From Escherichia phage Gluttony_ev152: DNA of 44,825 bases. Every line of letters starts with the position of its first letter. The first letter of the stretch is position 1. The stretch is from sequence record NC_073087.1. One strand, written 5' to 3'. Position numbers and translations under genes: made by a program. Below, piece after piece: positions 965 to 22,201 of the stretch. A model generated the notes under the pieces. The model saw only the letters and a program-made list of their open reading frames with translations, ran no database searches and was not told where the DNA came from.

Positions 965-994
965 ACTATAGTGCAACCAACCTATTGGTTGCAA
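965..994 (-). promoter_or_regulatory. sigma70-like promoter candidate, TTGCAA-N18-TATAGT (minus strand)
   Basis: Minus-strand -35 TTGCAA (989-994) and -10 TATAGT (965-970), 18-nt spacer ending in TTGGTTGCAC. Confidence 0.5.
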
Positions 995-1452
995 GTGAAT
1001 TTTGCAACGTTTATTGAGTAAATTTTCGGGACCAAATCACCACACGCCCGACGAATTGCCGCGATGTTCTTCGGACAGTCTTCAATGATGACCAGTTCCG
1101 ACACGTCCGCATAGCAGACCATTTTGAAAACGGCGCACGCCTTAAACTCAGGCGGCGGGGTGTCGTCCAGCATGTGGCGCATGAACAATCGACCTACGGG
1201 GAAGACCTCCAATTGCTCGGCGGTGGTGTCCCAACATTCGCGCTGCCGGTTGGTCAGATACGCGATCTCGAAGCCTTGCTCTTTGTACATGCGCAGCAGC
1301 GGCAGCATATCCATGTTCAGATCTTCGCGGACGTGCGCTTTGTGCCACTTCGCCCAGAAGGTTGATTTCGTTTTTATCCCCGGCACCAGGTCGGCACGCG
1401 CATCGCTTGAGCCGTTAATAACGCCATCCAAATCGCAAATCAGTAATTTCAT
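982..1452 (-). CDS. HAD-superfamily hydrolase/phosphatase-like protein
   Basis: N-terminal LICDLDGV (DxDGV-type HAD motif I) in 156-aa track ORF; co-oriented with replication module. Confidence 0.7.
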   Translation of the reverse strand: MKLLICDLDGVINGSSDARADLVPGIKTKSTFWAKWHKAHVREDLNMDMLPLLRMYKEQGFEIAYLTNRQRECWDTTAEQLEVFPVGRLFMRHMLDDTPPPEFKACAVFKMVCYADVSELVIIEDCPKNIAAIRRACGDLVPKIYSINVAKFTCNQ

Positions 1453-1673
1453 TTTAAACTCTCAATAAGGGTGTAACGGGCGCTTCGCGCAGTAAAGGAG
1501 TTGCACACGAAATGGCAACGCTGAGTCATGACAAGCCAACCGGTGAGGTCAAGGCCCAGGATGTATTCGGGGCGAGACGCGCGCACCACACGATTGCGTC
1601 GCGGGTCAATACCGTAGTCTTTTTGCATTTGGTCTACTACCGCGGGGTCGCGGTCAACGATTAAGATATTCAA
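1449..1673 (-). CDS. hypothetical protein (74 aa)
   Basis: Track ORF overlapping neighbours by a few nt in an operon-like arrangement; no motif recognised. Confidence 0.45.
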   Translation of the reverse strand: MNILIVDRDPAVVDQMQKDYGIDPRRNRVVRASRPEYILGLDLTGWLVMTQRCHFVCNSFTARSARYTLIESLK

Positions 1674-2139
1674 GGAGTTCTCCTTCGCTCATTATTTCAA
1701 TTTGTGCGCTGCCGATGGGCGGCGCTTCGTCAAATATTATCAATTGCTGGCATTTGTTATTGCTCGGCCCGACTTCACCGGTGACGGCGTGAATGAATCT
1801 AATCCGCCAGTCCAGAAGAATTATCAGGTTTGCAGTCTTCCGGGCCAGCCTCGCCCACTTCGTCGACGTGTCCTGATTCAGCAGCATGACAGTCCGGCGT
1901 CCGTGCGCTGCGCACTCTACCCACGGCAGCGGATCGGAATACGGCGGATTGCACCACTTCCACCCTTTCAACTCGGACCAGTCCACATCAAGCGCGCTGT
2001 GTTCCGCCGTGAAGTAACGCGGTAGCAGGTGGTTTGCATCGCTTGCCGCCATATCGTAACGGAATCGGTACTTCCGACGAAGCGGTTTAAATAAAGCTGG
2101 CGGCGTGCGCCAGCTATCTTTTTGCTCACTCTTCTGCAT
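1654..2139 (-). CDS. DNA N6-adenine methyltransferase (phage Dam family)
   Basis: DSWRTP near N-terminus and NPPYS catalytic motif, hallmark of phage Dam-type MTases; 161 aa. Confidence 0.8.
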   Translation of the reverse strand: MQKSEQKDSWRTPPALFKPLRRKYRFRYDMAASDANHLLPRYFTAEHSALDVDWSELKGWKWCNPPYSDPLPWVECAAHGRRTVMLLNQDTSTKWARLARKTANLIILLDWRIRFIHAVTGEVGPSNNKCQQLIIFDEAPPIGSAQIEIMSEGELLEYLNR

Positions 2140-2584
2140 GATCTGGGTCTATCGCATACAGGGCAATTTTCTTGTCGCTGGACAGAACGCGCCGGACTCG
2201 GGCCATATCCGCCGGACCCAGCGGTCGGCCATCGGAATAGTAGCTGCCGTTCGCACGCCACGCTATCAGCACCAGGTCTTTCCGGTCGATCTTAGACTGG
2301 CGGCCCTTCGGGCGCACGTACGCCTCGGCCCGTTTGCAATGCTCGCGCAAACCTTCGGCTGTGAGTCGATTTAGTGCGACGGTGGTTGTGTACCCGGTGC
2401 GCTGCATAATACCCATCAACTCATACAGCAGATCGAAGCGCTCCTCTAATTCCTTGCGCGCCTTCTCCTCGCCTTCATAGCTCGCCAGGTAGGTGTCTGC
2501 CAGCGCGCTAACACGTTCGACCTGTTCGCGGGCTTCGAGGCATTGCGCGGCCCAGTAATTTTTCTCTTCTTGTAAAATTTTCAT
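2126..2584 (-). CDS. hypothetical protein (152 aa)
   Basis: Track ORF, tight coupling with flanking minus-strand genes. Confidence 0.55.
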   Translation of the reverse strand: MKILQEEKNYWAAQCLEAREQVERVSALADTYLASYEGEEKARKELEERFDLLYELMGIMQRTGYTTTVALNRLTAEGLREHCKRAEAYVRPKGRQSKIDRKDLVLIAWRANGSYYSDGRPLGPADMARVRRVLSSDKKIALYAIDPDHAEE

Positions 2585-2827
2585 TTATTTAATCTCCGTA
2601 GTGCGGATTTCCTTGCGAGGAATAAATTTGCCGTCTTTCTCGACCCAGCAAGTTCCGTAACGCCATTGGGTATTACGGCCTGTTTGCTCGACATATACGG
2701 TCTTGCATTCGTAGCGTTCCGTGTAGTAAATAGCCGCGGTAGGTACGAAAATACAAACGGCGATCATGAGGGTGAGTATCACCCAAAATCGAAGGTCGCC
2801 GTCGTAGTCGAAAAATAATGATTTCAT
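2585..2827 (-). CDS. small membrane protein
   Basis: Internal ATG (M15 of track ORF 2585..2869) preceded by GGAGA at proper spacing; hydrophobic segment WVILTLMIAVCIFVPTAAIYY. Confidence 0.5.
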   Translation of the reverse strand: MKSLFFDYDGDLRFWVILTLMIAVCIFVPTAAIYYTERYECKTVYVEQTGRNTQWRYGTCWVEKDGKFIPRKEIRTTEIK

Positions 2828-2871
2828 CGTGTTGTCTCCAGGTATTAAAAAGGGCGTCCAACCGGACACCC

Positions 2872-2900
2872 TTAAGATAATGCAACCAATCTAATTATGC
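2872..2900 (-). terminator. putative intrinsic terminator (minus strand)
   Basis: Forward AAAAAGGGCGTCCAACCGGACACCCTT; on minus strand a GC hairpin followed by T-run, downstream of gene ending at 2908. Confidence 0.4.
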
Positions 2901-2907
2901 AACCAAT

Positions 2908-3231
2908 TTACGAATAAAAATTTGGGTCGCGTGCAACGTCTACCAGATACAGATTGCTGATTCGGTTGCCGTAGTGGCCTGGTGTTCGCTGGCGGCACAC
3001 AACGGCGTAGCCTGGAGGAATTGTATTGCCGGTCGCGATAATCCACGCCACGCGTGCGCCCGATAGAGTTTTGCCGTTGCATTCGATGCGCGTTCCGCCA
3101 TCGGCAGTGTTAAGGTTGCCGATTTTGCAGCCGGTGGACTTCAGACGAATGACGCCGGTTTTGCTGTCGTAGGAGAATAACTGGTTAGTCATTGCAACCG
3201 AAAAATCAATGGCTTCGAATGTAGTATTCAT
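2908..3231 (-). CDS. putative AP2/HNH-associated DNA-binding protein
   Basis: IECNGKTLSGARVAWIIATG resembles the G-K-x-AHR-AW-x-G pattern of phage AP2-domain/HNH homing-endonuclease accessory domains; by eye only. Confidence 0.4.
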   Translation of the reverse strand: MNTTFEAIDFSVAMTNQLFSYDSKTGVIRLKSTGCKIGNLNTADGGTRIECNGKTLSGARVAWIIATGNTIPPGYAVVCRQRTPGHYGNRISNLYLVDVARDPNFYS

Positions 3232-3938
3232 TTTAAATTTTCCTCATTGACCGCTATCGCGAAGCCGCGCGGGGTGAGCGACCGGATTAATTTTGTGCGT
3301 GCTGATTTGCCTCCGAGGCGACTATACTGCTTCGAGTACCCTTTTTCAACGAAAACAGGTTTCTTCTCTGGCATACGGAAGCCGTTGCCGGTCCATAAGC
3401 AGGTCAGCTTCGGATATGAATCGCGGGCGTTGATGTATTCCGGGAAGAGCGGGTGTACGTCATCCTCCGGCAGATATCCCCCATACTCCCACGGGTCGAA
3501 TGAGTGATCCGGCTTGCGCCACTGGGTGGAAAGCACACTGCGCGGATTCTCAATCATATATGGCACTTCGAAGAAGTCACCCAGGTAAGCGGCGATCTTC
3601 GCGGTGCGCACCGCCTTAAGCTGAAAGGCTGGGTCTTTAGCTCGCTTGCGCGGGAAAGCGGGCGCACCGCTCACTGCCAGATCCGTGCACGGAGGAAACG
3701 CATAGATGATATCTGGCGTACCGAAATCGCCATTCATCGCACGGTCTACAAAGTCCAGATCGATAAACTCATTGCGATACCGGATTCCGCGACCATAAAT
3801 CCGGTAGTCAAGGTAAGACCCGTGGTCGGCTTCGGAGTAGTTGAAGCAATAACACTTATGCCCCATCTCGGCAGCACGCTCAATCATCAAGCCGCTGCCG
3901 TCAAACAATGACCAGATTGTCATTTTAGCAATAGTCAT
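3228..3938 (-). CDS. putative DNA methyltransferase (C5-cytosine-like)
   Basis: LFDGSG (SAM-binding FxGxG-like) and FPPCTDLAVSG (PC catalytic-type motif) plus ENPR; 236 aa is short for a canonical C5-MTase, so the assignment is tentative. Confidence 0.5.
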   Translation of the reverse strand: MTIAKMTIWSLFDGSGLMIERAAEMGHKCYCFNYSEADHGSYLDYRIYGRGIRYRNEFIDLDFVDRAMNGDFGTPDIIYAFPPCTDLAVSGAPAFPRKRAKDPAFQLKAVRTAKIAAYLGDFFEVPYMIENPRSVLSTQWRKPDHSFDPWEYGGYLPEDDVHPLFPEYINARDSYPKLTCLWTGNGFRMPEKKPVFVEKGYSKQYSRLGGKSARTKLIRSLTPRGFAIAVNEENLK

Positions 3939-6118: not shown

Positions 6119-8409
6119 TACTTCCTGTACCTGTACATGATGTCGCCTTCGGCGGCAAGTGGGAAGCCCTTCGCCCAAATAGGCAGGTCGCACATCAGCG
6201 CGCAAAGCTCCTCGGTCGTGTAGTCGTCAGTATCCGGCACTTCGGTGATCAATTCATCATGCACCGACAGGACGATTTTATACCCCGCAGCTTCAACGCC
6301 AGGCATGGACCACGCGAGAATATCGCGACACAACGCCTGTACGATGTTCTCCGTCAGTTTGCCGCCGTAGGTATACTGGAATCCCCACTGGCGCGTCGTC
6401 TGATTCTCGCCCTGATATTTAATGCGTGTGCTGGTGCGCTTCTTGCCGGTGTCTTCGTCAATCTCGGTAGTGACAGACAGCGCGATGCCGGGGTAGCTCA
6501 TGATGCGCCCCGACGGCAACTCAATTTTCAACCACCACCCCGCGGCGTCCGGGTCGTCGCGCTCCTCGTCGAAGGTTGGGTCGTGCTTCGCCTTCGTACG
6601 GACAATCTTGAGCGCTTTTCTACCGTCCGGGCGAACGTTCGCGCCAGCCCAGTATGCTTTGCCAGGATTGCGGATTGCACACAACACCGCGTCCTCAAGC
6701 TCGGCCCAAAAGGCTACCGTCTTCGGGTGCGCCTCACGCCACATACGTTTGATTGCGTCACAAGTAAGCCATACGTTTTTCGGCAGTATGTATGTTGGGC
6801 GCTCGTCTTTCTTACCTGGCTTCGGCGGGCGTTTCGCTTCGTTAATGCGGGCGTACTCATAGCCGCGTTTCGCCGCCGCCCAAATGTGATCCGGGAACGT
6901 GCCTTTCATCACGTCCGCCATAGTGTAAAGGTCGAGGCCCAGGTTTTTAGCGAACTGCAAGAACGCCGCGACGCCGCCACCATAGCCCAGTCCCAATTCG
7001 CACGCCTTACCAATCTGGCGTAAGTCCTTGCGGTTGGCTTTAATGTAATCCGGGTCGAGGCCGAACATCTTACCGGCAGTCTCGCAATAGATATCGCGAC
7101 CGGCCTTAAAGACCATTAACGCTGTTTTCTCGCCAGCGATCCAGGCAAGGCCGCGCCCTTCCACGTTGGAGTAGTCAGCTACGACAAACTTCTTGCCCTT
7201 TGCAGGGATGATGCACCCGCGAACGGTCGAGGCTGTCAGCTTCGATATGTCATACGCCCAGTGCGCTTTCCCACGTAACAGGGAGTTGATTCCGTTGGTG
7301 AGCATGTGCGACCGGACCCAAAAAGCGACGTCGCTCTCGCCTTCGCGGCGCTTAATCTTCCCTTCGTGGTCGTCGCTGTACTCGCCGCGTGCCAGGTTTT
7401 GAGGTTGAAAGCCTTTACCGGCCCAGCGTAGCGTGCGCTTTGCCCCACCATACTGAAGACAACCACGGCGGCGACCATCGGCGGACAGGCCATTGACAAG
7501 CGGATTGTATTTAGTAGATGCCGTTGATGACGCACCGAGGCGCATTTCGATAAGCGCTTTGCCCTCGTCCGGGAAGTCCGGGTCTTCCAGTAGGTCGTTT
7601 AGCGTGGATTTCTGCGCGTTGTGTATCGTGAATGCTGGCGCAATATCACGCAGGATTGGCAGGAAGTCATTGCCGGTCAGCTTACCGCCAAACCGCTCCC
7701 AGGCTTCTTCCTTCAATTCTTCCTTATGCGCCTGCACCGCTTTGATCGCGGCGTTCGCCAGGTCAACGTCAACGTAGAAGCCGCGGTCGTTAATCAACTG
7801 GTCGATGAGCAGGATTTCATCTTCCTTTGGTGAGTTGCCCCAGTCCGGTATGCGCCAGTAGACTTCACGCATGGCAACAATATCCAGCGCGGCATAGCGC
7901 AAGAATTTGGCCCATTCTTCGGGGTGCGTCTCGCGTGTGTAGCGGCGGATTTTGTAGGTCTTAGGGGTGGGCTTACAGAATCGTTTAATCAGCGCCTTGC
8001 CTGCCTTATCCTTCGCGTGCTCTGCGTCAACGCCCAGCACCTGGCACTGCATATCGAGGCTACCGGGCAGCGCGTGGCGAAAGGCCATAATCATGGTGTC
8101 TTCGATCTGGCTTACCGGCAGGTCAATACCCCACTTCTCGCGAATAACCAGGCGGTCAAACAGTAGGCCGTTAGCCATCACGATTTTTGCTTTCTTGCGG
8201 GATACATGGCGGAGCGCTTTGCGCAGTTCACGCGGCATTGTGGGGGATTCAGTGCAATCCCATGTCTGCACGCGGCCCTCGTCGATGGCGTATGTGCAAA
8301 TCATAATCTCGGTGGTTGGGTGCTCTGCGTAGGCGTACGCCCCAACTTTCTTCAGGTCCACCCCGCTAAATGTCTCGGTGTCGAGAAACAGGCGTTCGAA
8401 GTCTTTCAT
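6118..8409 (-). CDS. DNA polymerase, family A (PolI-like) with 3'-5' exonuclease domain
   Basis: 763-aa ORF; N-terminal LFLDTETF exo motif; C-terminal SVHDELITEV polymerase motif; largest minus-strand gene. Confidence 0.9.
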   Translation of the reverse strand: MKDFERLFLDTETFSGVDLKKVGAYAYAEHPTTEIMICTYAIDEGRVQTWDCTESPTMPRELRKALRHVSRKKAKIVMANGLLFDRLVIREKWGIDLPVSQIEDTMIMAFRHALPGSLDMQCQVLGVDAEHAKDKAGKALIKRFCKPTPKTYKIRRYTRETHPEEWAKFLRYAALDIVAMREVYWRIPDWGNSPKEDEILLIDQLINDRGFYVDVDLANAAIKAVQAHKEELKEEAWERFGGKLTGNDFLPILRDIAPAFTIHNAQKSTLNDLLEDPDFPDEGKALIEMRLGASSTASTKYNPLVNGLSADGRRRGCLQYGGAKRTLRWAGKGFQPQNLARGEYSDDHEGKIKRREGESDVAFWVRSHMLTNGINSLLRGKAHWAYDISKLTASTVRGCIIPAKGKKFVVADYSNVEGRGLAWIAGEKTALMVFKAGRDIYCETAGKMFGLDPDYIKANRKDLRQIGKACELGLGYGGGVAAFLQFAKNLGLDLYTMADVMKGTFPDHIWAAAKRGYEYARINEAKRPPKPGKKDERPTYILPKNVWLTCDAIKRMWREAHPKTVAFWAELEDAVLCAIRNPGKAYWAGANVRPDGRKALKIVRTKAKHDPTFDEERDDPDAAGWWLKIELPSGRIMSYPGIALSVTTEIDEDTGKKRTSTRIKYQGENQTTRQWGFQYTYGGKLTENIVQALCRDILAWSMPGVEAAGYKIVLSVHDELITEVPDTDDYTTEELCALMCDLPIWAKGFPLAAEGDIMYRYRK

Positions 8410-8634: not shown

Positions 8635-9438
8635 TTAACGGCGGCGACGTTTGCGTGGTGCTTCGTCTTCGTCGTCGTCCTCATCTTCGTCATCGCGTGG
8701 CTTACGACGTTTGCGAGGTTTTTCATCTTCCTCATCGTCGTCGTCATCGCGGCGCTTGGATTTCTTGGACTTGCGCGGCTTGTCATCTTCATCATCGTCA
8801 TCACGACGTTTTGACTTCTTAGCCTTGCGCGGTGCTTCGTCTTCGTCGTCGTTGTCCAGGTCTTCATCGGAGCAAGAAGACCCGCCACCGCCGAAGGCTT
8901 CACCGTCATCACGGAAGCGTAAACCCAGCAAGCCAGCGCCGAGTCCCTTGCCGTTGGTGTTGTTCCACGCCCAAATATCAAGGGACACGTTGCAATAACA
9001 ACCAGAGTAGATCTCCTGGCCTTCAATCTCGTCGCCGTCTATGGTCAGACCTTGTTCAGTCTGCTTCTCGCCGAGTGACGTTTGAATGATTGGTTGTTTG
9101 AACGATTTGGCGTTGATATACAACATGCCTTCGAATTCTTCGGTTACTTCATCGCGCTCGTCGCCGTCGCGAACTGCACATTCCTTAGAATCCTGGGCGT
9201 AGTGGCGGTCCATCCACTTATCGGCATTCTTCTCGGATTTCAGCTTATCGGTGAGCACTGCGCGCGCTGCCGCTTCCACTTTGTCCACCTGCGGATCTTC
9301 TTTATCCAGAAGAATCACGGCACGGTATGCCGGTTTTTGTCCATCCTGTTTAGGGGTATCACGTTCCCAAATTTTCAGGAAGCATACGCGCACATTTTTC
9401 AGGTTGACTTTAGCCATTTTCCAATTCCTCATTTTCAC
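8635..9438 (-). CDS. DUF2815-like phage single-stranded DNA-binding protein with charge-block repeat tail
   Basis: Position between polymerase and Cas4-like nuclease as in DUF2815/DUF2800 replication modules; C-terminal 90 aa of alternating poly-acidic and poly-basic blocks; sigma70-like promoter upstream (9483-9511). Confidence 0.6.
   Translation of the reverse strand: MKMRNWKMAKVNLKNVRVCFLKIWERDTPKQDGQKPAYRAVILLDKEDPQVDKVEAAARAVLTDKLKSEKNADKWMDRHYAQDSKECAVRDGDERDEVTEEFEGMLYINAKSFKQPIIQTSLGEKQTEQGLTIDGDEIEGQEIYSGCYCNVSLDIWAWNNTNGKGLGAGLLGLRFRDDGEAFGGGGSSCSDEDLDNDDEDEAPRKAKKSKRRDDDDEDDKPRKSKKSKRRDDDDDEEDEKPRKRRKPRDDEDEDDDEDEAPRKRRRR
8640..8870 (-). repeat. low-complexity GA/GAC-type repeats encoding acidic/basic tail of SSB-like protein
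   Basis: Reiterated TTCGTCTTCGTCGTC and GCGTGGCTT/GCGCGGCTT units on forward strand. Confidence 0.5.
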
Positions 9439-9482
9439 ATGTATCGGGGTTATTGTGAGCCACCCCGTCCGGCTTGGTTGCT

Positions 9483-9511
9483 AATCTACTTGGTTGCGTC
9501 TGAGCGGTCAA
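9483..9511 (-). promoter_or_regulatory. sigma70-like promoter candidate, TTGACC-N17-TAGATT (minus strand)
   Basis: Hexamers read on minus strand upstream of SSB-like gene; GCAACCAAG motif in spacer and just downstream of -10. Confidence 0.45.
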
Positions 9512-9750
9512 GCATTTTTATTAAAAAGATTTCGTGTCACGTAGTTGGTGGCGTTCTCGATCCAGCTTAACGGCGGGCGGTCGATGTTCTTCCCCACCCA
9601 GTCGACGGCAGCGTCGCTATATCCGTCGTCCAGCCAACGGGTTGGATGACGAATCATCCAGGCCACCATCAACACGCCTTGCACGCAATGCAGGATAAAG
9701 CCCAGCGCGCCGAGCAAAAACATCAATAAGATTGCGAATACTTTATTCAT
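9508..9750 (-). CDS. small membrane protein
   Basis: 80 aa with N-terminal hydrophobic helix FAILLMFLLGALGFIL; overlaps start of downstream gene. Confidence 0.45.
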   Translation of the reverse strand: MNKVFAILLMFLLGALGFILHCVQGVLMVAWMIRHPTRWLDDGYSDAAVDWVGKNIDRPPLSWIENATNYVTRNLFNKNA

Positions 9751-11173
9751 TGCTTAAGTCCTCGTCAGTAGCTACAGACCACGCAGGGCGCGGGTCGTCG
9801 ATGGGTGCTAATACCGGTTTAGCTGGTGCGCGCGTGATTTTATCACACAACTTTGCCCACACTTTCGGCTTCTCGTCCTTCAATACCTTCTCGGCATCAG
9901 TAGGGCTGAGTAATGTTTCTTTGTACATAACATCGCGCTTGATCCGGGCCTTCGTGAAGATTTCAATCACTTCGCTTTCGTCCGCCCACTTGCGGATCCC
10001 TTCCTTACCGGCAACCATTTTGAGGCCCAGCGATTCGCCATCGCCAGCCATAACCGCCTTGAATACCGCGGACTCGATAGCCTTGATGTGCTGGCGCATT
10101 GCGTCTAAACCTTCATACGCCTTGCGCAGTTCCGCGGCAGTCATAGCGCCGGAGGCCGCTTCTTTCTTGCCACGCTTCGCACGTCGTGCCGCTTTGCGGG
10201 CTTCGCGGGCCATATTGCGGTCATGATTGGCGCATTCTTCCTCTGTCGCAATACTCACGTCGTCGCCCAGGTCTTCGTCTGTTGCCGTTGGTTGGGTCAT
10301 CGTGTCGATTGCGGCCTTAGCGCGGGCGCTACACTGATCCGCAAATCTGCACCACTGACACGCATCAACGCTCGGTCGGAAGTCGGCACGGGTGAGTCCC
10401 TTTTTGCCGCGGGCGTACGCTTCCAGGGCGGCGATAGCACGCTTGGACGCAAACTTCGCGAATATCTCCAGGGCTTCTACCGAAATATCCCACTCCGACG
10501 CCCCGCCGCAATACGGCTGGAAGATAACCAGGCGCACGGTCGTGATGTCGTACATGGATTGCAGCTTGCGCAGCAGGCCGAGCGCATACAGCATAAGCTG
10601 TTTGTTTTCTTTCGCCTCGACCTTATGCCGCCCCGTCTTCAGGTCGCCAACAATCAGCATGTACGTGCCGTCGGTCTTCTTCATGACCATGACCATATCC
10701 GCAGTGCCGAACGTCTTAACCCGGTTGCCGTCGATCTCGAAGCCAGAGTGTAGGACGCGGGTCAGATCGGCGCGCATCTCAAGCTGAACAAACTCCGCCA
10801 CTTCGAGGAGCGGTCGCCAGTGGTCGATGTACGCGTCGCACTGTTTCACCATGTCGTCGTTGACCAGTACGCCGCCTTTCGGCGCTTTCGGGTGCGCCTT
10901 TACCGGCCCCTTACCTTCGTTCTCGACGTAACACCCTTTGTACGTCTTAGCGGTTATCAGCTTCTCACCGGCGATAATACGGTTTAGCACGACTTCAGAT
11001 ACGGTGTGCATACTCGTACCGTTAATCGCCGCTTGCCCGGATTCGTTCGGGATACCCTGTTCTACCACCAGGGCGGCGGGGCAACCCATCCATTTTTTAG
11101 CACCGGATGGCCCGAGTAATGAATGTTCCGTATTGCTACCGGATTGCGTTTTACGTTTTGGTTTAATCGCCAT
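9743..11173 (-). CDS. PD-(D/E)XK nuclease, Cas4/DUF2800-like
   Basis: 476 aa; cysteine cluster CQWCRFADQC typical of Cas4/RecB-family Fe-S nucleases; conserved neighbourhood with SSB and polymerase. Confidence 0.7.
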   Translation of the reverse strand: MAIKPKRKTQSGSNTEHSLLGPSGAKKWMGCPAALVVEQGIPNESGQAAINGTSMHTVSEVVLNRIIAGEKLITAKTYKGCYVENEGKGPVKAHPKAPKGGVLVNDDMVKQCDAYIDHWRPLLEVAEFVQLEMRADLTRVLHSGFEIDGNRVKTFGTADMVMVMKKTDGTYMLIVGDLKTGRHKVEAKENKQLMLYALGLLRKLQSMYDITTVRLVIFQPYCGGASEWDISVEALEIFAKFASKRAIAALEAYARGKKGLTRADFRPSVDACQWCRFADQCSARAKAAIDTMTQPTATDEDLGDDVSIATEEECANHDRNMAREARKAARRAKRGKKEAASGAMTAAELRKAYEGLDAMRQHIKAIESAVFKAVMAGDGESLGLKMVAGKEGIRKWADESEVIEIFTKARIKRDVMYKETLLSPTDAEKVLKDEKPKVWAKLCDKITRAPAKPVLAPIDDPRPAWSVATDEDLSNE

Positions 11174-18339: not shown

Positions 18340-18750
18340 ATGTTAAAAAGCATTCTTGATCATAACGCTGACGCGCTCGCCGCGCTGGCTAAAACCGAAG
18401 ACCCTGGCGCACGCGCTATCATCGCGGACACTATCAGCCACGCCGGGGTCTTCGATGCGAAGCTGCCTAGCGTGCCGGAAAGTAAGCCGGTGGCAAGTGC
18501 GACCATAACCATCACCCCAGTGTCAGCCGCAGTCGGTGCGAAGGCCGCCGCGTCTGTTGCCGTCCTGCCATCCGACGCAACTAACAAGGCGGGGAAGTGG
18601 GTGTCCGCAAACCCGGAATGCGCGGCAATCAATCAGGCTACCGGCGAAATCACAGCAAAATCGGAGGGTGGTGTCCACATCTTTTGGGTGGCATCCGATG
18701 GTAGCGGGGCGATGGCGTCCGCCATCTTCACCGTAACGGAAGCAGGATAA
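18340..18750 (+). CDS. bacterial Ig-like (Big_2-type) domain protein
   Basis: C-terminal VLPSDATNKAGKWVSANPECAAINQATGEITAKSEGGVHIFWVASDG resembles Big_2 fold signature; followed by intrinsic terminator. Confidence 0.55.
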   Translation: MLKSILDHNADALAALAKTEDPGARAIIADTISHAGVFDAKLPSVPESKPVASATITITPVSAAVGAKAAASVAVLPSDATNKAGKWVSANPECAAINQATGEITAKSEGGVHIFWVASDGSGAMASAIFTVTEAG

Positions 18751-18759
18751 TAAAACCAC

Positions 18760-18786
18760 AAGCCCGGTTAATTCCGGGCTTTTTAT
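18760..18786 (+). terminator. intrinsic terminator
   Basis: GCCCGGTTAATTCCGGGC hairpin followed by TTTTTAT after Ig-like gene. Confidence 0.65.
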
Positions 18787-18849
18787 TGCTTGACTTGCAA
18801 CCAACTATCAGACCATACTGCGACCAACCAACGAGAGGAGTAGTAAACT

Positions 18850-18930
18850 ATGGCACGTAATGATATTTGGGTATTGGCAATCTGGTCAGCCGCCGCATTT
18901 ATCGGTATGGTTATTTGCGAATTGCTATAA
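18850..18930 (+). CDS. small hydrophobic peptide (26 aa)
   Basis: Strong RBS GAGAGGAG 8 nt upstream of ATG; MARNDIWVLAIWSAAAFIGMVICELL; not in track. Confidence 0.3.
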   Translation: MARNDIWVLAIWSAAAFIGMVICELL

Positions 18931-18991
18931 CCAGCCGCAGTAGGGACCGTGGTATATTGTCCTCGGACCAATAACCAGGAAGTTAATTAAT

Positions 18992-20134
18992 ATGCACCCG
19001 CAAACTAAAATCACCGACGAGCAATTGATCGACGAGTTGCAATCCGGCACTACCGCGAAAGAGATTGCGAAGAAGTACGGAATTGCTCTTCGAAACGTCT
19101 ACATGCGCAAAGCCCGCCTATCGAAGAAAGGGATTGGTCACGGCAACGATGACGTAATCCGTAAGCGCGTTGCCGATGGCTTTGGGGTTAAGCGCGTATC
19201 GGCCCTGGTGCGCGGTAATGGCGAAGAGGTCATGTCGTGGGTCATCACTGAGCAGGACAAGGAGCGCCAACTCGAAGCTATGCGCGCTGTTGTCGAGGGT
19301 ATGAACAGCGAAATCACACCGGCAGCGCCAGTAAACGCCCCGCCAGTACCGATCCAGGCGCTAGACTTGCTCAACTTGTACACCGTGTCCGACTTCCACC
19401 TGGGCATGTTGGCCTGGGGCGAGGAGACTGGCGAGGATTGGGATATGGCGATTGCCGAAGACCTGTTCTACCGCTGGTTTGTCGAAGCCTTCGCACGCGC
19501 ACCGGACGCAGGCACTGCCGTAATTAATATCCTCGGTGATATGGCGCATTTTGATAGCCTTGATGCCGTCACACCGGCAAGTGGTCACGTACTGGACGCG
19601 GATACCCGCTACCAGAAGCTGGTCCGCTACATGATTCGCATGGTGCGCAACGTGGTGGAACTGGCGCTGCAAAAACACCACAAAGTCAAACTGCTAATCG
19701 TCCAGGGGAATCATGACGAGTCTGGCATGATTTGGCTGGCTGAAATGTTCAATACGCTGTACGAGAACGAGCCGCGCGTCGATGTGGATACATCCCCGGA
19801 CGTATACAAAATGGTGCAGCACGGCAAGACAACGCTGTTCTTCCACCACGGGCACAAAGCGCGATTCGATGTTATCGAGCAGGTTATGATCGCTAAATTC
19901 AGACAGGCGTTCGGGTCGAGCGAATACAGCTACGCGCACGTAGGCCATTTGCACCACCAGAAGATTGTTGAATCCCGCAACATGATTGTTGAACAGCACA
20001 GGACGCTCGCAGCGAAAGACGCCTACGCCAGTCGTGGTGGTTGGATGTCCGGTCGCAGCGCCAACGTCATTACCTACAGCGCCAACTACGGCGAAGTAGC
20101 GCGCTTAACCATTAGCCCGGAAATGTTGAAGTAA
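18992..20134 (+). CDS. HTH domain fused to calcineurin-like metallophosphoesterase
   Basis: N-terminal TAKEIAKKYGIALRNVYMRK HTH-like segment; phosphoesterase motifs SDFHLG, GDMAHFD, GNHDE, HHGH, GHLHH in canonical order. Confidence 0.7.
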   Translation: MHPQTKITDEQLIDELQSGTTAKEIAKKYGIALRNVYMRKARLSKKGIGHGNDDVIRKRVADGFGVKRVSALVRGNGEEVMSWVITEQDKERQLEAMRAVVEGMNSEITPAAPVNAPPVPIQALDLLNLYTVSDFHLGMLAWGEETGEDWDMAIAEDLFYRWFVEAFARAPDAGTAVINILGDMAHFDSLDAVTPASGHVLDADTRYQKLVRYMIRMVRNVVELALQKHHKVKLLIVQGNHDESGMIWLAEMFNTLYENEPRVDVDTSPDVYKMVQHGKTTLFFHHGHKARFDVIEQVMIAKFRQAFGSSEYSYAHVGHLHHQKIVESRNMIVEQHRTLAAKDAYASRGGWMSGRSANVITYSANYGEVARLTISPEMLK

Positions 20135-20146
20135 CGGCAGCCAGTA

Positions 20147-20181
20147 AGCCACCCAGCCTGCCGATTTGGTGGGCTTTTTTG
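20147..20181 (+). terminator. intrinsic terminator
   Basis: GCCACCCA...TTGGTGGGC hairpin followed by TTTTTT after phosphoesterase gene. Confidence 0.55.
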
Positions 20182-20264
20182 TGCCTGTTATAATCCACCT
20201 TAGATGGCAGGGCCGTCTCCTATGTTGCCGATGGTCGGCGCATATGCACAAAAGGGCTTATATC

Positions 20265-20816
20265 ATGGCAGAAATTAAAGTTAAGGGCCGACGCGCCAAA
20301 CTGGACGGACGAGTAGCAGTAACCCCGCGCCGCAAACCAGGCGAGCAAACCGAGCATACCAATCTCGGACCTGAAATCGAGTACGGAAAGCGCCGTAAAG
20401 GCGGCAAATGTGGACGCCCTACTGACTACCGATCCGTTTACTGCGACCAGCTTCGCCGCTATTTTGCCGACGCCGACGCCTGGCAGGTAAACTACTCCGA
20501 TAAAGGCGCTGCGCAAGTAATCCCCCGCAACAAAATGCCAACCTTCGGTCGATTTGCCGCGGAAATCGGCGTGGGCGTAGCTTGCCTGTATCGCTGGGCG
20601 CGCGCACATGAGGAGTTCGCCGAGGCTATGGCTGACGCTATGGAGCTACAGAAAACATTCCTGATGGAAGCTGGCGGCGTGACCATCGCGGCAGGCTTCG
20701 CTACCTTCCTGCTTAAAGCCAACCACGGCGTCCGGGACGATGTGCCGCTGGATGACGACGAAGATGATAACGGCGACGTCGTTGTGGAACCTACCGGCAA
20801 AGGCCAGGGTGATTAA
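20265..20816 (+). CDS. terminase small subunit
   Basis: Immediately upstream of and overlapping terminase large subunit (TAATG); GRPTDY segment and acidic C-terminus typical of TerS; start at internal ATG (M34 of track ORF), first ATG lies in terminator region. Confidence 0.6.
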   Translation: MAEIKVKGRRAKLDGRVAVTPRRKPGEQTEHTNLGPEIEYGKRRKGGKCGRPTDYRSVYCDQLRRYFADADAWQVNYSDKGAAQVIPRNKMPTFGRFAAEIGVGVACLYRWARAHEEFAEAMADAMELQKTFLMEAGGVTIAAGFATFLLKANHGVRDDVPLDDDEDDNGDVVVEPTGKGQGD

Positions 20817-22201
20817 TGCGTAACTATGCGGCAGAACATCGCGCCCTTGAACGAGCGATCGCAAAGCGAAACCGACCGCCGCGCCCGACACGCGTTGCGC
20901 AGGCCGTCCGCCTTTACCAGCCTGATTGCTTGCCGCACCAGGTTGAACTACTGCGCGACACGAAGACTAAAATACTCGGCCTGTGTTCCGGCTTCGGCGG
21001 TGGAAAGTCGTGGGTCGCTGCGCGTAAGGTCATCCAGCTTTTAACCCTGAACCCAGGTCATGACGGCATCGTTACAGAACCGACTATTCCGCTCCTGGTT
21101 AAAATCATGTATCCGGAACTGGAGAAGGCATTCGACGAGGCTGGATTCCGGTGGAAGTTCAATAAGCAGGACAAGATTTATAGCGTGCTGGTGAAAGGGA
21201 AATGGACCCGCGTTATCTGTGAATCAATGGAGAACTATACCCGCCTGATCGGGGTCAACGCCGCATGGATTGTCGCCGATGAATTCGACACTACTAAGCA
21301 AGACGTCGCGCTGGCGGCGTATCACAAATTGCTCGGTCGTCTGCGTGCGGGCTTTGTCCGCCAGTTCGTCATCGTGTCCACCCCGGAAGGCTACCGGGCG
21401 ATGTATCAGATTTTCGAAGTGGAGAAGGATAGCCAGAAACGTTTGATCCGGGCGAAGACTACCGATAATCACCACTTACCGCCAGACTTTATCGACACGC
21501 TGCGCAGTCAGTATCCCGCTAACCTGATCGATGCGTACCTGAACGGCCTGTTTGTAAACCTTACGTCGGGCGCGGTATACAAGATGTTCAACCGGGAGGA
21601 GAACGCAAGCACCGAAGAAGTGCAGCCCGACGACACGCTGATTATCGGTATGGACTTTAACGTCACGAAAATGGCGGCGGTCGTGTACGTCAGACGGCAG
21701 CGCATCACCGAAAACAAGGAGTTCCGCGACGAGATACACGCAGTGGATGAATTTGTGGACCTGTTTGACACCCCAGCTATGATTGAGGCGATCGAGGAGC
21801 GCTACCCGGAACATTGTGCCGCCGGTAGGGTCGTCGTTTACCCGGATAGCAGCGGCAAATCCCGCAAGACGGTCAACGCGTCGTCGTCCGATATCGCACA
21901 ACTGGAAGACGCGGGCTTCGAGGTGGAGTATGACAGCGTTAACCCGCCTGTGAAAGACCGACTGATCGCGATGAATACGATGATGTGCAACTCGAAGGGC
22001 GTGCGCCAGTATTTTGTCAACCTGGATAAATGCCCTACACTAGCGAAATGTCTGGAACAGCAGGTTTACGACCTGAAGAAAGGCGAGCCGGATAAAACCG
22101 CCGGGGTGGACCACATGAACGATGCCGCGGGTTATCCAATTGCGCACCTGTTCCCTGTGATTCGTCCAATCGCCGTTGTTCCTACCGTAGATTTCTACTA
22201 A
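20816..22201 (+). CDS. terminase large subunit
   Basis: 461 aa; Walker A-like GFGGGKS; ATPase plus C-terminal nuclease region; canonical position before portal. Confidence 0.85.
   Translation: MRNYAAEHRALERAIAKRNRPPRPTRVAQAVRLYQPDCLPHQVELLRDTKTKILGLCSGFGGGKSWVAARKVIQLLTLNPGHDGIVTEPTIPLLVKIMYPELEKAFDEAGFRWKFNKQDKIYSVLVKGKWTRVICESMENYTRLIGVNAAWIVADEFDTTKQDVALAAYHKLLGRLRAGFVRQFVIVSTPEGYRAMYQIFEVEKDSQKRLIRAKTTDNHHLPPDFIDTLRSQYPANLIDAYLNGLFVNLTSGAVYKMFNREENASTEEVQPDDTLIIGMDFNVTKMAAVVYVRRQRITENKEFRDEIHAVDEFVDLFDTPAMIEAIEERYPEHCAAGRVVVYPDSSGKSRKTVNASSSDIAQLEDAGFEVEYDSVNPPVKDRLIAMNTMMCNSKGVRQYFVNLDKCPTLAKCLEQQVYDLKKGEPDKTAGVDHMNDAAGYPIAHLFPVIRPIAVVPTVDFY

Follow-up and report, generated by a model that had tools for sequence, protein, structure and literature searches.

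A putative helix-turn-helix-tethered phosphoesterase with Mre11-like motifs, encoded next to the terminase genes of a Dhillonvirus

Escherichia phage Gluttony_ev152 (sequence record NC_073087.1; the whole stretch of 44,825 nucleotides was analysed and is here called the window) carries, directly before its terminase genes terS and terL, a gene that fuses a helix-turn-helix (HTH) domain to a metallophosphoesterase. What does such a protein do, and does its position matter? A preliminary description, made from the sequence alone, recognized the fusion and the placement, both of which are borne out, and raised two possible roles: DNA end processing or packaging, and interference with host signalling. 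We give an even chance to another answer, that the protein is a stand-alone, HTH-tethered, metal-dependent nuclease or phosphodiesterase that serves the phage's DNA and nucleotide metabolism. Behind this reading stand observations on architecture, catalytic conservation, fold class, expression, the signals that bound the transcription unit, and gene neighbourhoods.

The gene and its parts are these:

18992..20134, plus strand: HTH-metallophosphoesterase gene, 380 amino acids plus stop; member of PHROG 704
19016..19126, plus strand: N-terminal three-helix HTH, LuxR/GerE/sigma-70 region 4-like (residues 9-45)
19181..19306, plus strand: family-specific beta-hairpin plus helix that joins the HTH to the catalytic domain (residues 64-105)
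19352..20131, plus strand: metallophosphoesterase catalytic domain with motifs I-V (residues 121-380)

The open reading frame (ORF) begins with ATG at 18992 and ends with a stop codon at 20132-20134; a ribosome-binding site, AGGAAG, lies 5' of the start. All five of the calcineurin-like motifs first noticed by eye are present: motif I, D134-F-H136; motif II, G182-D183 plus H186; motif III, G239-N-H-D242; motif IV, H285/H286/H288; and motif V, G318-H-L-H321. Their conservation among 61 relatives, which share 32-48% identity, is far beyond chance. Residues D134, H136, G182, D183, D188, T194, N240, H241, H286, G318, and H321 are invariant in all 61, and H186, D242, H285, H288, and H319 are conserved in at least 90% (G239 and D242 in 92-95%). 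The main metal-ligand positions are thus held without exception across divergent proteins. This points to an active enzyme rather than a degenerate domain.

Standard domain models fall short of detecting the catalytic domain. PF00149 falls below its gathering threshold (20.4 versus 21.5 bits), as does PF12850 (22.5 versus 27 bits), because the family is too divergent for either model; among the 61 relatives, 15 match PF00149 and six match PF12850 with E <= 0.01. The AlphaFold2 model of the protein (mean predicted local distance difference test score, 92.3) gives the catalytic domain the alpha/beta sandwich fold of the phosphoesterases. About 60 residues remain C-terminal of motif V, and all are core strands.

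In the same model, residues 9-17, 22-29, and 33-45 form the three helices of the HTH. The protein itself scores weakly against HTH models (HTH_28, E 0.019; GerE, E 0.038), and its relatives match more strongly (Sigma70_r4_2, 1.5e-9; GerE, 2.4e-8; HTH_1, 4e-6). A search of the PDB with the family profile picks the HTH domains of GerE, RhlR, DesR, and FixJ (GerE 1fse, E 0.039). The HTH is retained in all homologues inspected. It can be taken as real, of the LuxR/GerE or sigma-70 region 4 type, and is predicted to bind DNA. The hairpin-helix module that follows is likewise present in every homologue inspected, with residues G77 and W83 nearly invariant.

Which class of phosphoesterase is this? 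The preliminary description left PPP-type (lambda protein phosphatase, or lambda PPase) and Mre11-type enzymes to be told apart by profile comparison. That comparison speaks for the Mre11/SbcD type and against the PPP type. The catalytic-domain profile finds, in the PDB, Thermotoga maritima Mre11/SbcD (E 0.009-0.08), a Pseudomonas putida nuclease metallophosphoesterase (0.16), Pyrococcus furiosus Mre11 (1.5), and no others; when the single protein was compared with PDB sequences, the only matches were spurious ones to repeat proteins. The family motifs SDFHLG, GDMAH, GNHD, and GHLH align to SDWHLG, GDLLH, GNHD, and GHIH of T. maritima Mre11. Indeed, the signature DxHLG/GD(L)xH/GNHD/GHxH is common to this protein and the Mre11/SbcD proteins (T. 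maritima 2q8u/3qg5; Staphylococcus aureus SbcD 7dog; T4 gp47). In both fold and profile, the nearest counterparts of the catalytic domain are the Mre11/SbcD/PolD-DP1 nucleases rather than the protein phosphatases of lambda-PPase type, and the margin of fold over small-molecule phosphodiesterases is small (LpxH, 13.7; MJ0936, 13.5).

The likeness stops short of family membership. Unlike Mre11/SbcD, the phage protein has an N-terminal HTH plus the hairpin-helix module. DP1, the small subunit of PolD, carries an OB fold as its N-terminal domain, and to our knowledge the PolD large subunit is absent from phages. DP1 is a 3'-5' proofreading exonuclease (PDB 5ihe) with 13% identity to the phage protein, and the two N-terminal domains differ. 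As a working classification, the protein is probably an enzyme of the Mre11/DP1 class, yet it is not filed as an Mre11 family member.

The gene is an established part of its genus. A megablast comparison of 18992..20134 with phage records returned 153 matches, led by Escherichia phage jat (97.5%) and SECphi4 (96.8%). These best matches are Dhillonviruses, and therefore the window is the complete 44.8-kb genome of a virulent HK578/SO-1-like siphovirus of the genus Dhillonvirus. The same query found zero matches in complete E. coli genomes; therefore the gene is not a resident prophage gene. Of Dhillonvirus-like records, 153 contain it and 155 contain terL, and it is a Dhillonvirus core gene; about 150 near-identical genomes carry it as an annotated gene. 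Annotated Dhillonvirus proteins are 97-98% identical to it. The homologue in phage welsh shares 94% nucleotide but 98% amino-acid identity, which indicates purifying selection. The protein is also made: in lysates of Dhillonvirus EE09, mass spectrometry detected three peptides of the homologue, CDS39 (PMC10673088).

Beyond the genus, the family is large. The protein matches the PHROG 704 profile ("DNA repair exonuclease") over its full length (E 5e-161), and tblastn finds homologues of this type in 2,063 of 50,697 phage records (about 4%). A search of 1.84 billion cluster representatives gave 4,651 relatives with E <= 0.001, and 1,130 with E <= 1e-30; most are 370-400 amino acids long and align end to end. 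Nothing in the gene sets it apart from PHROG 704 members and the calcineurin-like proteins of GenBank (T1 gp16 homologues, Jerseyvirus, Webervirus, and others), all of which bear computational names. GenBank calls them "calcineurin-like phosphoesterase superfamily domain protein", "DNA repair exonuclease", "winged helix-turn-helix domain-containing protein", or "hypothetical protein"; the record for H33 says "transcriptional regulator". Relatives in BFVD are all uncharacterised viral proteins, and the NCBIfam and PADLOC models gave nothing useful. The protein is best described as belonging to a known superfamily, in which it is uncharacterised and has a HTH-hairpin-phosphoesterase layout specific to its family; it is not a new kind of system. 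The gene is already in GenBank many times, so its sequence adds nothing new, and a specialist would find nothing surprising in it.

A survey of escape mutants that used SECphi4 does not mention the gene. Papers on Metis and on PUA-Cal-HAD were set aside: they concern phosphoesterases of host defence systems, not the phage protein.

Outside Dhillonvirus, the homologues occupy varied positions:

T1-like Shfl1 (T1 gp16 homologue): before the holin, endolysin, and spanin genes
Webervirus and T1-like OzMSK: followed by phosphatase, kinase, and lysis genes
Jerseyvirus and Kagunavirus: in a reverse-oriented island within the tail genes
T7-like Bonnellvirus megetsur: after 5'-3' exonuclease and endonuclease VII genes, between DNA polymerase and RNA polymerase
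Rhodobacter Casjensviridae phage: after the lysis genes
Yersinia myovirus: followed by phosphatase, kinase, and portal genes
Lambdoid metagenomic contigs: between the nin region and the lysis genes
Another temperate contig: flanked by the tailspike and integrase genes

Certain neighbours recur: a PNKP-type 3'-phosphatase; a deoxynucleoside monophosphate kinase-like (dNMP-kinase-like) protein; other nucleases; and the lysis cassette. Local tblastn comparisons show that the gene directly 3' is one homologous HAD phosphatase in five groups (Webervirus, Kagunavirus, Bonnellvirus, a T1-like phage, and a Yersinia phage; 33-57% identity), and that in four of the five a single homologous P-loop protein is encoded next (34-52% identity). 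The phosphatase belongs to HAD_PNKP (PF25109, 72 bits) and PHROG 415, with PDB matches to Pnkp1 and to the phosphatase domain of T4 PNK; the P-loop protein falls in PHROG 139, "dNMP kinase". These neighbours place the phosphoesterase in nucleic-acid and nucleotide metabolism. In megetsur the homologue lies within a block of DNA-metabolism genes, which likewise supports a nuclease.

The three-gene cassette (HTH-phosphoesterase, PNKP-type HAD phosphatase, and dNMP-kinase-like P-loop protein) is portable across unrelated genome layouts; in Kagunavirus K1ind3 it forms a reverse-oriented island within the tail genes.

A phosphatase of the same type is encoded in the window:

982..1452, minus strand: PNKP-type HAD phosphatase, phrog_415 "polynucleotide kinase", with a DLDGV motif

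It is a possible functional partner of the phosphoesterase. Between the HAD phosphatase and a DNA methyltransferase-like ORF (1654..2139) lies a 74-amino-acid homologue of Ksap1 (1449..1673, minus strand; phrog_10685, E 4e-45). Ksap1 is a Dhillonvirus protein that triggers the Klebsiella immune sensor Avs2 (KpAvs2) and is encoded "next to a phosphatase" (PMC11564622). That phosphatase was considered as a candidate for the phosphoesterase and rejected: it is the unrelated HAD enzyme at 982..1452.

How, then, might the HTH-phosphoesterase work? What we infer concerns its DNA substrate, the direction of its chemistry, its timing, and its biological role. The protein would be a binuclear-metal phosphodiesterase of the Mre11/SbcD/PolD-DP1 structural class, tethered through a flexible linker to a HTH of the LuxR/sigma-region-4 type. 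The HTH would put the enzyme onto DNA, and the Mn2+/Mg2+ centre would cleave phosphodiester bonds there, as an exonuclease or an endonuclease. Its role may be to break down or trim host or damaged DNA ends and to recycle nucleotides; the PNKP-type 3'-phosphatase and the dNMP-kinase-like protein would be its partners in many other phages. A precedent for such a pathway is T4 gp46/47, a Mre11/Rad50 pair that helps convert host DNA into nucleotides.

Several observations weigh against this nuclease. The sequence matches to Mre11 are marginal (E about 0.01) and cover chiefly motifs I-II, and the C-terminal capping domain of Mre11/SbcD is missing. No Rad50/SbcC partner appears among the 56 annotated SECphi4 features overlapping a 40-kb stretch, nor does a Rad50/SbcC-like gene appear across the window genome, in which the large unnamed ORFs encode an exonuclease (phrog_69), a Gp2.5-like protein that binds single-stranded DNA (SSB), a helicase-primase, and a methyltransferase. 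The cassette is incomplete here: the HAD phosphatase gene is 18 kb from the phosphoesterase gene and unlinked to it, and the window encodes no homologue of the dNMP-kinase-like P-loop protein. Jerseyviruses, moreover, mostly lack the phosphatase. A HTH of the sequence-specific type sits oddly with a general DNase. An exonuclease plus annealase module is present separately in the phage genome, and therefore the phosphoesterase is probably not the phage's main recombination exonuclease. Finally, a literature search, which included accessions, the name T1p16, and the PHROG number, found no experimental work on any PHROG 704 member; one on the degradation of host DNA by T1 was unproductive.

The recombination module itself (8635..11173, minus strand) comprises the Gp2.5-like SSB/annealase (8635..9438) and a 476-amino-acid exonuclease of phrog_69 (9743..11173).

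Phage T5 offers a functional precedent and analogue in its A1 protein. Host DNA degradation and shut-off require A1, in which a DNA-binding domain at the N-terminus is joined to a C-terminal nuclease (bioRxiv 10.1101/2022.08.27.505566). It also acts in second-step DNA transfer; it is toxic, and tied to host DNA breakdown. The two proteins share a design: a swappable N-terminal DNA-binding domain joined to a C-terminal domain with invariant metallophosphoesterase-like residues. They differ in family (PHROG 1745 for A1, 704 for the phosphoesterase) and in size (A1 has 556 amino acids, with a middle region of about 240), and A1 is pre-early in T5. None of three tests demonstrated a common origin, and A1 is kept as an analogue. 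BLASTP between the two gives E 0.2; hhalign gives a probability of 18-20% over 19-22 columns around motif III, and nothing beyond.

The A1 family was also characterized in its own right (gene at 1706..3376, minus strand, of T5 stretch L014). Its invariant residues are D304, H306, N396, H397, H476, H501, and H503, arranged as GDxH (303-306), NH (396-397), and HxH (501-503). In homologues with about 46% identity, the N-terminus is replaced by HTH_23, HTH_38, HTH_7, or CENP-B_N. A Pfam search of A1 gave zero matches.

The analogy suggests a more specific version of the nuclease reading, which we regard as doubtful: that the HTH-phosphoesterase is a DNA-targeted nuclease of host takeover or end processing, the small-siphovirus counterpart of A1, carried by many phages in a portable three-gene cassette, and directed to its DNA site by a swappable HTH.

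Is the gene part of the terminase operon? In annotated Dhillonvirus relatives, the local order is two holins, lysin, a small ORF, the phosphoesterase gene, terS, terL, and portal. The signals and genes around it in the window are these:

18760..18781, plus strand: terminator-like hairpin and T-run that close the lysis cassette; 8-bp GC-rich stem, -15 kcal/mol, z = -4.3
18790..18819, plus strand: sigma-70-like promoter candidate; -35 TTGACT, 18-nt spacer, -10 CATACT
18850..18930, plus strand: hydrophobic micro-ORF of 26 amino acids, MARNDIWVLAIWSAAAFIGMVICELL, with ribosome-binding site GAGGAG
20155..20175, plus strand: terminator-like hairpin and T6 directly 3' of the phosphoesterase stop; -14.1 kcal/mol, z = -1.7
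20186..20194, plus strand: perfect extended -10 element, TGTTATAAT, 70 nt ahead of terS and just beyond the terminator
20265..20816, plus strand: terS, 183 amino acids; phrog_3064 terminase, E 2e-73; a neighbour outside the phosphoesterase unit
20816..22201: terL, directly after terS

Comparison of the window with SECphi4 and Sponge shows that most of these signals are maintained. The hairpin at 18760..18781 is kept in both; the TTGACT and CATACT hexamers are invariant in the three phages, and the spacer between them is variable; and the hairpin at 20155..20175 and the element TGTTATAAT are invariant. Differences in the micro-ORF are mostly synonymous or conservative. Neither record annotates it, and it is probably co-transcribed with the phosphoesterase gene. 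The element TGTTATAAT is the likely promoter of an operon for terS, terL, and the structural genes, and would mark the start of a separate unit. The phosphoesterase gene appears to form a small unit of its own: candidate promoter; 26-amino-acid membrane micro-ORF; gene; and terminator. There is no conserved small partner, as the small proteins encoded 5' of the gene vary among phage groups.

Just 5' of the phosphoesterase ribosome-binding site lies an imperfect palindrome, GGACCGTGG-N8-CCTCGGACC (18944..18969, plus strand), which in SECphi4 is a perfect 9-bp inverted repeat. A role for it as an operator or an RNA hairpin was weighed and rejected: the differences are non-compensatory, and its fold is no better than that of shuffled sequences (z = -0.6).

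The last ORF of the lysis cassette (18340..18750, plus strand) encodes 136 amino acids here and 55 in SECphi4 and Sponge. Its first 48 residues match the 55-amino-acid "lysozyme downstream ORF" family (phrog_11068), and the remainder is an Ig-like domain of a type borne by major tail and decoration proteins (phrog_215/341). The 137-amino-acid version in phage EE09, CDS40, was detected by mass spectrometry in lysates and in infected cells.

A transcription unit with its own candidate promoter and terminator, encoding a protein with a HTH, raises the alternative of a transcription regulator. The HTH would bind phage promoters and control genes for lysis or late functions, with the phosphoesterase domain as a sensor or an accessory activity. 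The strong matches of relatives to sigma-70 region 4 and GerE fit this proposal, as does the name in the H33 record. So does location: in T1-like, Webervirus, lambdoid, Rhodobacter, and Yersinia phages, the gene lies by the lysis cassette or the start of the late genes. However, the invariant metal ligands imply that catalysis is under selection, and the genes that travel with this one encode enzymes of nucleotides and nucleic acids. An activator may be superfluous at the terS promoter, whose extended -10 element is complete; moreover, no repeated operator-like motif was found, the rejected palindrome being the sole candidate. A regulator is unlikely.

The lambdoid contigs suggested a related idea, replacement of the lambda Q antiterminator, but there the neighbouring ORFs lack family matches and no pattern of promoters and terminators emerges. 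In these contigs, a stretch of about 850 bp (about 6850..7700 in contig L005) without a called forward-strand gene, a tRNA, or a clear promoter or terminator precedes an operon of an 80-amino-acid ORF, the phosphoesterase gene, and lysis genes. A gene of the Acb2/Tad1-hairpin type follows the lysozyme gene.

The cassette itself suggests end healing. Bacterial Pnkp employs a metallophosphoesterase domain for this purpose, and the phage enzyme could be a 2',3'-cyclic or 3'-phosphodiesterase that, with the PNKP-type phosphatase and the kinase, mends tRNA or DNA cut by host defence nucleases. The conserved company of a HAD_PNKP phosphatase that matches Pnkp1 and the T4 PNK phosphatase domain, followed by a P-loop kinase, favours this explanation. 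Yet no ligase is seen in the neighbourhoods examined, the kinase belongs to the dNMP-kinase PHROG 139 rather than to a polynucleotide-kinase family, and Dhillonvirus lacks the kinase. The catalytic domain, too, is more like Mre11/DP1 than like lambda PPase or Pnkp, and a HTH is unexpected in an enzyme of RNA repair. End healing seems a shade more unlikely than regulation.

A third alternative is that the protein hydrolyses small nucleotides (cyclic nucleotides, Ap4A, or NAD-derived signals) and so counters host immune or stress signalling. Its fold is also near those of MJ0936, YfcE, Rv0805, GpdQ, and Ap4A hydrolase, and the Acb2/Tad1-hairpin gene lies nearby in lambdoid contigs. Nevertheless, the motif signature is that of Mre11, the conserved DNA-binding domain is hard to account for, and there are zero matches to PADLOC models. 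This role is very improbable.

Interference with host signalling by a lambda-PPase-type phosphatase of Ser, Thr, or Tyr residues fares slightly worse, and with packaging is among the two least likely explanations. Lambda carries its phosphatase after the nin region, which is also where lambdoid metagenomic contigs place the HTH-phosphoesterase gene. The phosphatase (NinI) and the phosphoesterase are both phage-borne members of one superfamily. Unlike the PPP enzymes, however, the phosphoesterase has a HTH, shows lower structural similarity to them, and lacks their signature: in place of GDxHG, GDxVDRG, and GNHE, its motifs read SDFHLG, GDMAHFD, and GNHD. The catalytic-domain profile search produced zero PPP matches, and one lambdoid contig also has a separate small phosphoesterase (phrog_547).

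There remains packaging, the weakest explanation, in which a nuclease would process DNA ends for the terminase. In headful packaging, the terminase itself makes the cuts. The gene is immediately 5' of terS and terL in the window and in other Dhillonviruses, but a terminator-like hairpin and a separate candidate promoter intervene; Sponge has an additional 64-amino-acid ORF (7158..7352 of stretch L002), absent from the window and SECphi4, between the gene and the terminator; terminase adjacency is confined to Dhillonvirus among about a dozen phage groups, the homologue lying elsewhere in T1-like, Webervirus, Jerseyvirus, Kagunavirus, Bonnellvirus, Casjensviridae, Yersinia, Vibrio, and lambdoid phages; and headful packaging is predicted for Dhillonvirus Opt-212 (PMC9022532). 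The adjacency is an accident of layout, and the phosphoesterase is not a packaging factor.

The HTH-tethered nuclease or phosphodiesterase remains the reading with most support. Of 50,697 phage records, about 2,000 carry a gene of the PHROG 704 type, among them T1-like, Webervirus, Jerseyvirus, and Dhillonvirus phages employed in therapy and in screens of defence systems. An abundant family with a strictly conserved catalytic centre and an apparently uncharacterised function is a reasonable target. Three results orient the first work: the lack of a tie to packaging; the resemblance to Mre11/DP1 rather than to protein phosphatases; and the frequent company of a PNKP phosphatase and a nucleotide kinase. 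Dhillonviruses (SECphi4, Bas14-18) are easy to engineer, so function is directly testable. If the protein does prove to be a counterpart of T5 A1, then phages would possess, in this family, a widespread and as yet unstudied means of breaking down host DNA and salvaging nucleotides, or of repairing damage inflicted by host defences.

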